The notes under the pieces: generated by a model
Database searches by the model: none
The model's input: the letters and a program-made list of their open reading frames with translations, nothing else
What the model was told of the DNA's origin: nothing
In this document: in pieces, positions 20,645-21,976 of the stretch
Layout of the letters: each line of letters begins with the position of its first letter
Numbering within the stretch: the stretch's first letter is position 1
Translations under genes and position numbers: made by a program
IMG/VR virus record: IMGVR_UViG_2909257012_000006
Coordinates: 1-41,364 of that record
Direction: 5' to 3' (one strand)
Origin: a virus
Lineage: Duplodnaviria > Heunggongvirae > Uroviricota > Caudoviricetes
DNA length: 41,364 nt

Positions 20645-20730
20645 ATTGATTATTTCCCTTCTGCTTGCTTATCCCATTCATCGCGGAATTTGGATGGGTT
20701 TGAAGTGGTCAACAAAAACTGGCCACCGAG

Positions 20731-21549
20731 TTAGAGTTTTTTCCAGTATCGATTTTCCGATTCGTTTGGTGGTAACCCACCATTATATTCGTGCGGTCTT
20801 AGTGCGCTGTAATATCCAACGATATAGTCCGTTATTGCGTGAGCTGCATCGCTGAAGCTTACATAGCCCGTCGCCGGCACCCATTCGTTCTTCAGACTCC
20901 TGAAGAAGCGCTCCATTGGGCTGTTATCCCAGCAGTTTCCACGCCGACTCATACTCTGCCTGATCCGGTATCTCCACAGTAACTGCCGGAACTGCCTGCT
21001 CGTATAATGACTGCCTTGATCGCTGTGGAACATCACCCCGACGGGCTTACCACGGGTTTCCCATGCCATTTCCAGTGCTTTCATGGTAAGCCTGCTGTCC
21101 GGCGAGAACGACATGGCCCAGCCCACTGGTTTTCTTGCGAACAGGTCGAGAACAACGGCGAGGTACGCCCAGCGCTTACCCGTCCAGATATAGGTCACAT
21201 CACCGCACCACACCTGATTTGGCTCGGTCACGGCGAACTGCCGTTCAAGGTAGTTAGGGATAGCAACATGTTCATGACCACCACGTTTATACCGGTAAGT
21301 CGGCTGCTGACAGCTGACCAGCCCCAGCTCTTTCATGAGTCTGCCAGCAAGCCAGCGCCCCATCTGGTAGCCTCTCTGGGTTGCCATTGTGGCGATGCTT
21401 CTTGCTCCGGCAGAGCCGTGGCTGATGCCATGCAGTTCAAGTACCTGGCTGCGTAATACAGCCCGTCTGCCGTCTGGCTTTTCAGGACGGTTTTTCCAGT
21501 ATTTGTAGCTGCTGCGATGGACCCCGAACACATGGCAGAGAGTGGCCAC
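20731..21549 (-). CDS. IS911 transposase OrfB frame (expressed as OrfAB by -1 frameshift)
   Basis: IS3-family DDE catalytic domain frame; -1 relative to orfA. Confidence 0.9.
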
Positions 21550-21575
21550 AGGATAACGCGCCCTGAGTTTCCCGA

Positions 21576-21878
21576 TTATCGAGAACTGTTCAGGGAGTCT
21601 GACATCAAGAGCGCGGTAGCCTTTTTTAATATTTCATTTTCCATTTCAATACGTTGTAGCTTTTTCCTGAGCTCACGGATTTCAATTTGTTCCGGGGTAA
21701 TAGGGGAGGCTTTTGGTGTTTTTCCCTGCCGCTCATCACGTAATTGTTTCACCCATCGCGTCATTGTGGAAAGGCCGACATCCATAGCGCTGGCTGCATC
21801 TGCCACGGTGTAATTCTGGTCAACGACCAGTTGAGCGGATTCGCGTTTAAACTCTGCGCTGAAATTTCTTTTTTTCAT
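21576..21878 (-). CDS. IS911 transposase OrfA
   Basis: [51 protein letters not shown]... matches recalled IS911 OrfA. Confidence 0.9.
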
Positions 21879-21976
21879 TATGGCACCTGTGTTGTTCTGA
21901 GGTGAGCATATCACCTCTGTTCAGGTGGCCAAATTCAGTAAACCACTTCAGTTGTCGAAACCTTGAGTTGCCATGT

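Follow-up and report, generated by a model that had tools for sequence, protein, structure and literature searches.

The stretch of DNA analysed here, called the window throughout, is the whole of the 41,364-bp IMG/VR virus record IMGVR_UViG_2909257012_000006. Its late operon, which is that of a P22-like prophage, contains a complete insertion sequence (IS) of the IS3 family, ISEc52, placed just ahead of the packaging genes. This copy (copy 1; 20701..21950, minus strand) is 1250 bp long. Downstream of it in the sense of late transcription come terS (20219..20644), for a small terminase of the Sf6 type with 141 amino acids (aa; Pfam Sf6_terminase, 151 bits), and terL (18807..20222; 471 aa, Pfam Terminase_3). 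On its other side lie an orf80-like gene (21977..22219; Pfam DUF2560, 148 bits) and, farther upstream, a gene for a Q-family late antiterminator (25869..26492; Pfam Antiterm Q, 192 bits), just downstream of which a promoter-like site, TTGACT-17-TAAATT (25798..25826), is a candidate for the late promoter PR' by consensus match only. The IS, terS, terL, the orf80-like gene, Q and the promoter-like site are all on the minus strand, and 56 bp separate the end of the IS from the terS ATG at 20644. These coordinates agree with the original prediction, made from the sequence alone, which had placed the element 56 bp before terS, between the orf80-like gene and terS, and co-oriented with the late genes.

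That prediction had also described a complete 1250-bp element with intact orfA and orfB and a 3-bp duplication, and all of this is borne out by the sequence and by domain matches. Copy 1 begins with TGAAGTGG at 20701 and ends with CCACTTCA at 21950. Its left and right terminal inverted repeats, IRL (21924..21950, minus strand; TGAAGTGGTTTACTGAATTTGGCCACC) and IRR (20701..20727, minus strand, carrying an outward-facing TTGACC hexamer), are 27 nt long and imperfect, with 78% complementarity according to a repeat finder. The 5'-TG...CA-3' ends and the length are those of the IS3 family (1.2-1.5 kb). So is the short target-site duplication (3-4 bp in this family): GTT is found on both sides, at 20698..20700 on the IRR side (AAC on the late strand) and at 21951..21953 on the IRL side, and only once in the empty site described below. 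Of the two open reading frames (ORFs), orfA (21576..21878, minus strand, ATG at 21878) encodes 100 aa with a Pfam HTH_Tnp_1 domain, and the orfB frame (20731..21549, minus strand), which holds the rve/DDE domain, is expressed as a 382-aa OrfAB fusion by way of a programmed -1 frameshift site, A AAA AAG (21621..21627, minus strand; IS nt 324-330). The -1 fusion is without a stop throughout its 382 aa, in keeping with the two-ORF, slippery-site layout of IS3 elements, and it combines the helix-turn-helix and DDE domains of their transposases (Pfam HTH_Tnp_1, 54 bits; rve, 109 bits). Its score against the NCBIfam IS3 transposase model NF033516 is 380 bits, with a cut-off of 160.

The name is where we depart from the original prediction, which had called the element IS911. 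Nucleotide identity to the IS911 of phage Sf6 is 94.88% (64 differences; OrfAB 94.3% and OrfA 98% identical), whereas hundreds of E. coli copies match at 99.7-99.9% over the full 1250 bp, and these carry the NCBI annotation 'IS3-like element ISEc52 family transposase'. IRL positions 9-11 read TTT in the window and CAC in Sf6 IS911 (TGAAGTGGCACACTG...). Under the ISfinder convention an element shares a name with its reference at about 95% nucleotide identity or more, and against the IS911 annotated in Sf6 our element falls marginally short of that value. By sequence identity, then, it is ISEc52, a very close sibling of IS911, for which 'IS911-like' is fair and 'IS911' slightly off; the name ISEc52 rests on the NCBI annotations of the E. 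coli genome copies. We note in passing that the IS911 feature of the Sf6 record AF547987 (32876-34124) seems to be off by 3 bp: read from TGAAGTGG to CCACTTCA, the element is at record positions 32879-34127 and is flanked by the duplication GTT.

Relatives of the window that lack the IS exist at 98-100% identity, and the comparison with them that the original prediction had called for gives an exact empty site. As a query we used both flanks of copy 1 joined with a single GTT. This sequence is matched at 566 of 566 positions in E. coli GN04171, to whose prophage both flanks are collinear, and at least 80% of it is covered in 223 complete E. coli genomes. Since the GN04171 site is identical throughout and has GTT once, copy 1 is, on this comparison, a real and simple transposition of an intact ISEc52. 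We then looked for the filled junction, searching with the whole junction region among 50,697 phage records and 5,426 complete E. coli genomes, and with the exact 30-nt junction among GTDB representatives, IMG/VR and JGI metagenomes; it was not found in any of these five collections. Because of this absence the insertion is probably private to its source genome and recent, and recency is suggested also by the 100% identity of the two ISEc52 copies of the window (the second is described below).

The insertion sits in a P22-like prophage that is intact in other respects and is integrated at argW in an E. coli-like genome. This prophage has a head of the CUS-3 type and a terminase of the Sf6 type. 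Its coat protein is 98.6% identical to that of CUS-3; its late operon has the P22-like gene content, with Q followed by lysis, terminase, portal, scaffold and coat genes on the same strand; and every essential gene in the window has an open frame of full length. The proteins are 97-100% identical to those of the annotated GN04171 prophage, a mosaic relative of the window located at the argW-dsdC site (100% for the int, tailspike, terS, orf80-like and holin proteins; 99% for the Q, lysozyme and KilA proteins). The window opens at base 1 with the int ATG and closes at base 41364 with the torI/xis stop. Reading it as a circular phage genome, with xis ending at 41364 and int starting at 1, was considered and rejected. 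In GN04171 int adjoins argW at one prophage end and torI/xis adjoins dsdC at the other; because the gene order is the same, we take the window to be an integrated prophage from first to last gene, and not virion DNA. Nothing in the window shows that the prophage produces particles.

The window contains a second ISEc52 (copy 2; 35136..36385, plus strand), 100% identical to copy 1 and inverted relative to it. Copy 2 has inserted into the PL operon downstream of N (Pfam N_peptide) and is co-oriented with local transcription; a terminator-like hairpin (35097-35116), followed by a T-run, has its stem 17 bp before the insertion point. It has its own target-site duplication, AAC (35133-35135 and 36386-36388), and its site, too, is empty in GN04171. 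The pair is not a composite transposon: there is a separate duplication around each copy and a separate empty site for each in GN04171, and judged by these flanks the two copies are independent insertions. Together they form inverted repeats of 1258 nt, 100% identical, with 13,175 nt between the arms. The intervening 13.2-kb segment carries the lysis, Q, nin, replication and immunity genes.

The two insertions have more than their triplet in common. Read in the orientation of the IS, both copies have the duplication AAC, and the 5 nt before IRL are ACAAC in each (window 21951-21955 / 20698-20700 for copy 1, 35131-35135 / 36386-36388 for copy 2). A target-site consensus for ISEc52 was not found among 13 clean duplications from IMG/VR. 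A second pair of insertions with a shared flank is formed by Salmonella phage SEN22 (KT630648) and E. coli ATCC 25922, in both of which IRL is preceded by GGTGAAT, with AAT as the duplication. What copies 1 and 2 of the window have in common here might mean that target choice or repair is biased by the 3-nt spacer of the IS circle junction.

The original prediction had treated the interval between the orf80-like gene and terS as plain spacer. In the empty site these 79 bp hold a conserved ORF of 23 codons, MATQGFDNPSKFRDEWDKQAEGK, which is intact in locus L004 (20245-20323) and is split by the IS in the window. Its ATG comes 2 nt after the orf80-like stop and is preceded at 7 nt by GGAG; its TAA comes 5 nt before the terS ATG, and its last codons, GAA GGG AAA, are the terS Shine-Dalgarno. 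In the window, codons 1-8 (MATQGFDN; 21951..21974, minus strand) now run into a TGA within the first IS bases, and codons 9-23 with the TAA (20650..20697, minus strand), containing the terS Shine-Dalgarno GAAGGG, are left on the far side of the element. The IRL-side duplication is codon 8 (AAC, Asn), so that the IS has duplicated this codon and the ORF terminates at the TGA. The small ORF would thus be lost through the insertion.

ORFs of similar length were found by tBLASTn in HK544 and Emek (MSAEGFNNPSKFRDEWDSSVKSK), in Proteus phage Brookers (MAVEGSDNPVKFREELDKSIPKK) and in Cronobacter phage ES2 (MKSCNATQGFDNPTKFREEWDRQTKEA). Overall the conserved ORF is 23-29 codons long and has GFDNPSKFR(D/E)EWD as its core motif. 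A scan with a degenerate pattern found the small ORF in at least 120 IMG/VR contigs and in at least 53 unique variants. Among the matches listed, every variant has an in-frame ATG 3-9 codons before the core and ends 6-8 codons after EWD, at a stop that varies between TAA, TGA and TAG. At 57 of the 82 listed loci that have a downstream ORF this ORF is terS, directly adjacent, with a gap of 5 nt in all but one; the terS concerned is of the Sf6 type (141 aa) at 37 loci and of the P22 type (162 aa) at 20, two types that are unrelated to each other. At other places the small ORF comes after Rz1, after KilA, or after Q and a terminator. The protein-level design of the scan pattern biases the core toward a coding-like appearance; the unbiased evidence lies in the conserved start, the conserved position of the stop, and the Shine-Dalgarno sequences in otherwise different flanks. 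The small ORF has no Pfam family, its 12 database matches are all named 'hypothetical protein', and a literature search found no paper containing the motif. We suggest tentatively, as something possible that we would not yet call probable, that MATQGFDNPSKFRDEWDKQAEGK is a real, selected micro-gene of lambdoid phages, maybe coupled in translation to terS, and that the prophage in the window is a natural knockout of it. Translational coupling is possible because the last codons carry the terS Shine-Dalgarno.

RNA folding places the terS AUG of the intact site in a predicted hairpin of -19.3 kcal/mol (z -2.7), with the stop codon of the small ORF in its 5' arm. No informative covariation was found for this hairpin; its stems are kept in both Sf6-type variants, but within conserved codons. 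Initiation of terS translation might be altered by the IS junction. For the readthrough RNA we also considered sequestration of the orfA start and rejected it: the start is paired in the minimum-energy fold, with a z of -0.53, no better than shuffled sequences.

As regards transcription of the late genes, the promoter-like site at 25826-25798 is the one found, and there is none on the minus strand from 22300 to 20645, in either case by a consensus scan only. On the minus strand neither the IS (20701-21950) nor the 56 bp that lead to terS contain a promoter-like site by that scan, or a terminator-like site by a sequence scan. With no such promoter detected after the IS, late transcripts for the packaging and virion genes would have to cross the element. 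This much of the claim that these genes depend on readthrough from PR' is supported; the part that concerns PR' itself stands at a consensus match. Late transcripts would start downstream of Q and reach terS, terL and the virion genes by reading through the IS. Such readthrough is likely, given an element without a terminator in the late direction and with a promoter of its own that would transcribe it that way. Q-modified RNA polymerase ignores terminators, so the insertion would be at most weakly polar on transcription; processive antitermination is reported to bypass terminators irrespective of their sequence (PMC10325885).

We consider it quite probable that copy 1 represents a recent, simple transposition of ISEc52 that late transcription reads through with at most weak polarity, and that whatever costs it has lie more likely in genome size, in inversion, in the small ORF and in the terS start. 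Total polarity is unlikely, because no terminator-like site is present, a Q gene lies upstream, and SEN22 and Sf6 are precedents; a modest fitness cost is likely. With respect to size, the two copies add 2 x 1.25 kb to a genome packaged by headful, which would leave about 2.5 kb less terminal redundancy. With respect to structure, the 1.25-kb inverted repeats could invert the 13.2-kb segment of regulatory, replication and lysis genes.

Several points weigh against this interpretation. First, both the readthrough and the viability of the prophage are things that we infer. Second, should modification by Q be incomplete, Rho could load onto the orfB RNA, roughly 820 nt that are mostly untranslated. 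Third, folding of the RNA that contains the IS predicts pairing of the terS start with the IRR end (-42 kcal/mol, with a z of only -1.8). Fourth, the SEN22 precedent is inexact, its IS having the opposite orientation and another site, and the phage a P22-type head and terS. Finally, the size argument is not firm, as the same coat type is found in two records of 44.6 and 46.1 kb.

The first alternative is that the main defect is one of size and structure and not of transcription: at 41.36 kb the genome would be near or above a headful and have no terminal redundancy, and the inverted copies would scramble gene order. We regard this as possible, though doubtful. Isolated phages with this coat type (coat at least 95% identical) have genomes of 38.2-40.2 kb, a range into which the window would fall after removal of both IS copies (38,858 bp), and Sf6 grows faster by deleting its IS911, which raises terminal redundancy (PMC5630979). 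These figures are set against the two longer records just mentioned and against SEN22, which is viable at 41,338 bp, though with a P22-type head; as applied to the window, the size argument uses only the genome lengths of phages that share the coat type. The length and perfect identity of the inverted repeats, at their distance of 13,175 nt, and the inversion signatures seen between ISEc52 copies in other contigs speak for the structural half of this alternative; the gene order of the window, which is non-inverted and functional, speaks against it.

ISEc52 copies in other P22-like prophages (E. coli CEA212U, which is L006; L139/L156, L186 and L208) have no duplications. They either join unrelated segments, as where a truncated ant is fused to the PL region, or have reciprocal flanks, and from these arrangements we read them as deletions and inversions mediated by the IS. 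One flank, ATGCAACAGTTCGC (window 36566-36579), is seen repeatedly beside the IS with different partners.

The second alternative, which we think unlikely, is that the insertion is strongly polar or disabling, so that TerS, TerL and the virion proteins are not usefully made and the prophage has begun to decay. It draws on the position of every packaging and virion gene downstream of the IS with no promoter-like site between, and on the largely untranslated orfB, such an untranslated IS ORF being the classic basis of IS polarity. The junction contributes as well, with the small ORF that bears the terS Shine-Dalgarno and ends 5 nt before terS now cut, and with the terS start predicted to pair with the IRR end. 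Decay finds a parallel in the many ISEc52 copies of IMG/VR prophage contigs that lack duplications and show inversions or deletions (L139/L156; the deleted prophage of CEA212U). On the other side stand the Q antiterminator gene, the lack of a terminator-like site in the late direction of the IS, and the viability of SEN22 and Sf6, whose antiterminated operons carry this IS or a related one. The essential genes of the window are all open and full length, moreover, and neither copy runs against local transcription or lies within an annotated gene. Of the possible polarity on particle production that the original prediction had raised, the strong form is unlikely given the terminator-free IS, the Q gene and SEN22.

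The third alternative, that the IS supplies promoter activity for terS and terL independently of PR', either by readthrough from its promoter pIRL or by a hybrid promoter built on the -35 hexamer of IRR, is in our judgement very improbable. The TTGACC of IRR does lie 6 nt from the IS end, and with no terminator between orfB and terS even weak pIRL transcripts would reach terS. The consensus scan, however, detected no promoter on the minus strand in the IS or its 56-bp flank, and the hexamers at 16-18 nt after TTGACC (AATTCC, ATTCCG and TTCCGC) are poor -10 elements. The pIRL promoter of IS911 is weak; some weak readthrough from pIRL might still reach terS in the lysogen. The outward promoter activity that had been envisaged thus has no detectable promoter-like site behind it.

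Last, that the IS is an assembly artefact is extremely unlikely: one collapsed repeat placed twice might indeed look like two copies that are 100% identical and share a 3-bp duplication and a 5-nt IRL-side flank, but the two copies have separate target duplications at their ends, GN04171 has the triplet once at either native empty site with the flanks contiguous, and an artefact would not make precise duplications at two unrelated sites.

Some further features of the prophage were noted. An HNH endonuclease gene with an AP2 domain (25106-25597, minus strand; Pfam HNH_3 + AP2), also present in GN04171, lies between the Q/late-promoter region and the holin gene and resembles a homing-endonuclease insert in the late leader. 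Two direct repeats of 35 nt (31488-31522 and 31554-31588), 94% identical and 66 nt apart, are found inside the replication-initiator gene (31076-31975) and look like origin iterons. ARAGORN called a tRNA-Pro (UGG) at 33805-33886 (plus strand), between cI and N; an Rfam scan of the whole window gave no match to tRNA or any other family, and because of this we consider the call probably a false positive. A sequence like the T-arm and 3' end of a tRNA, GCAGGTTCGATTCCCTATTCGG (41128-41160), is found within the prophage immediately upstream of xis (41165-41364) and may be a remnant of an old attachment site.

Much of what we describe is routine: ISs often land in prophages, and Sf6 and SEN22 tolerate them in antiterminated operons. 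Only the conserved, unannotated micro-ORF before terS and the duplication and 5-nt flank shared by the two copies go beyond it. The window nevertheless offers a natural test case for the cost of a late-operon IS to a headful-packaging phage, by comparison with IS-free relatives, and likewise for the destabilisation of a prophage by two inverted copies and for the role of the small ORF before terS. That ORF is absent from most annotations, and it may matter for terminase expression in P22-like and other lambdoid phages.

Compared with known systems, the element itself is ordinary: in length, terminal repeats and ORF layout it shows no structural difference from ISEc52, which is placed in the IS3 group of the IS3 family, and what is new, among the collections searched, is its insertion site. 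The suppression of polarity by N (in gal) and by Q of phage lambda is classic genetics, and the window resembles those systems in having an IS in an operon that an antiterminator-modified polymerase would read, with a Q-family gene at hand; it differs in that the qut site and PR' are here deduced from a promoter-like match.

IS911 of Sf6 (AF547987) belongs to the same family and has the same size (1249-1250 bp), orfA/orfB layout, A6G site and 3-bp duplication. There it interrupts ninG in the PR operon and points against phage transcription (PMC5630979), whereas copy 1 of the window is co-oriented with late transcription. Sf6 is viable with this insertion; under selection for fast growth it repeatedly loses IS911, and then grows faster and gains terminal redundancy (PMC5630979).

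The closest likeness is to SEN22, a plaque-forming, P22-like phage that yields 4e6 PFU (plaque-forming units)/ml from uninduced cultures. It has two mutually identical IS copies, 2 nt different from those of the window, in a genome of nearly the same size (41,338 vs 41,364 bp); one is in ant and the other, as in the window, in the late operon upstream of terS. The SEN22 copies are direct repeats that both point against late transcription, however, whereas those of the window are inverted and copy 1 is co-oriented; the late-operon copy of SEN22 lies between Rz and the orf80-like gene, 17 bp after Rz, and not beside terS; and the head, portal and terS are of different types (coat identity 29%; terS 162 aa vs 141 aa in the window). 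With these two phages as precedents, an IS in a prophage, even in an antiterminated operon of a P22-like phage, is an already known situation.

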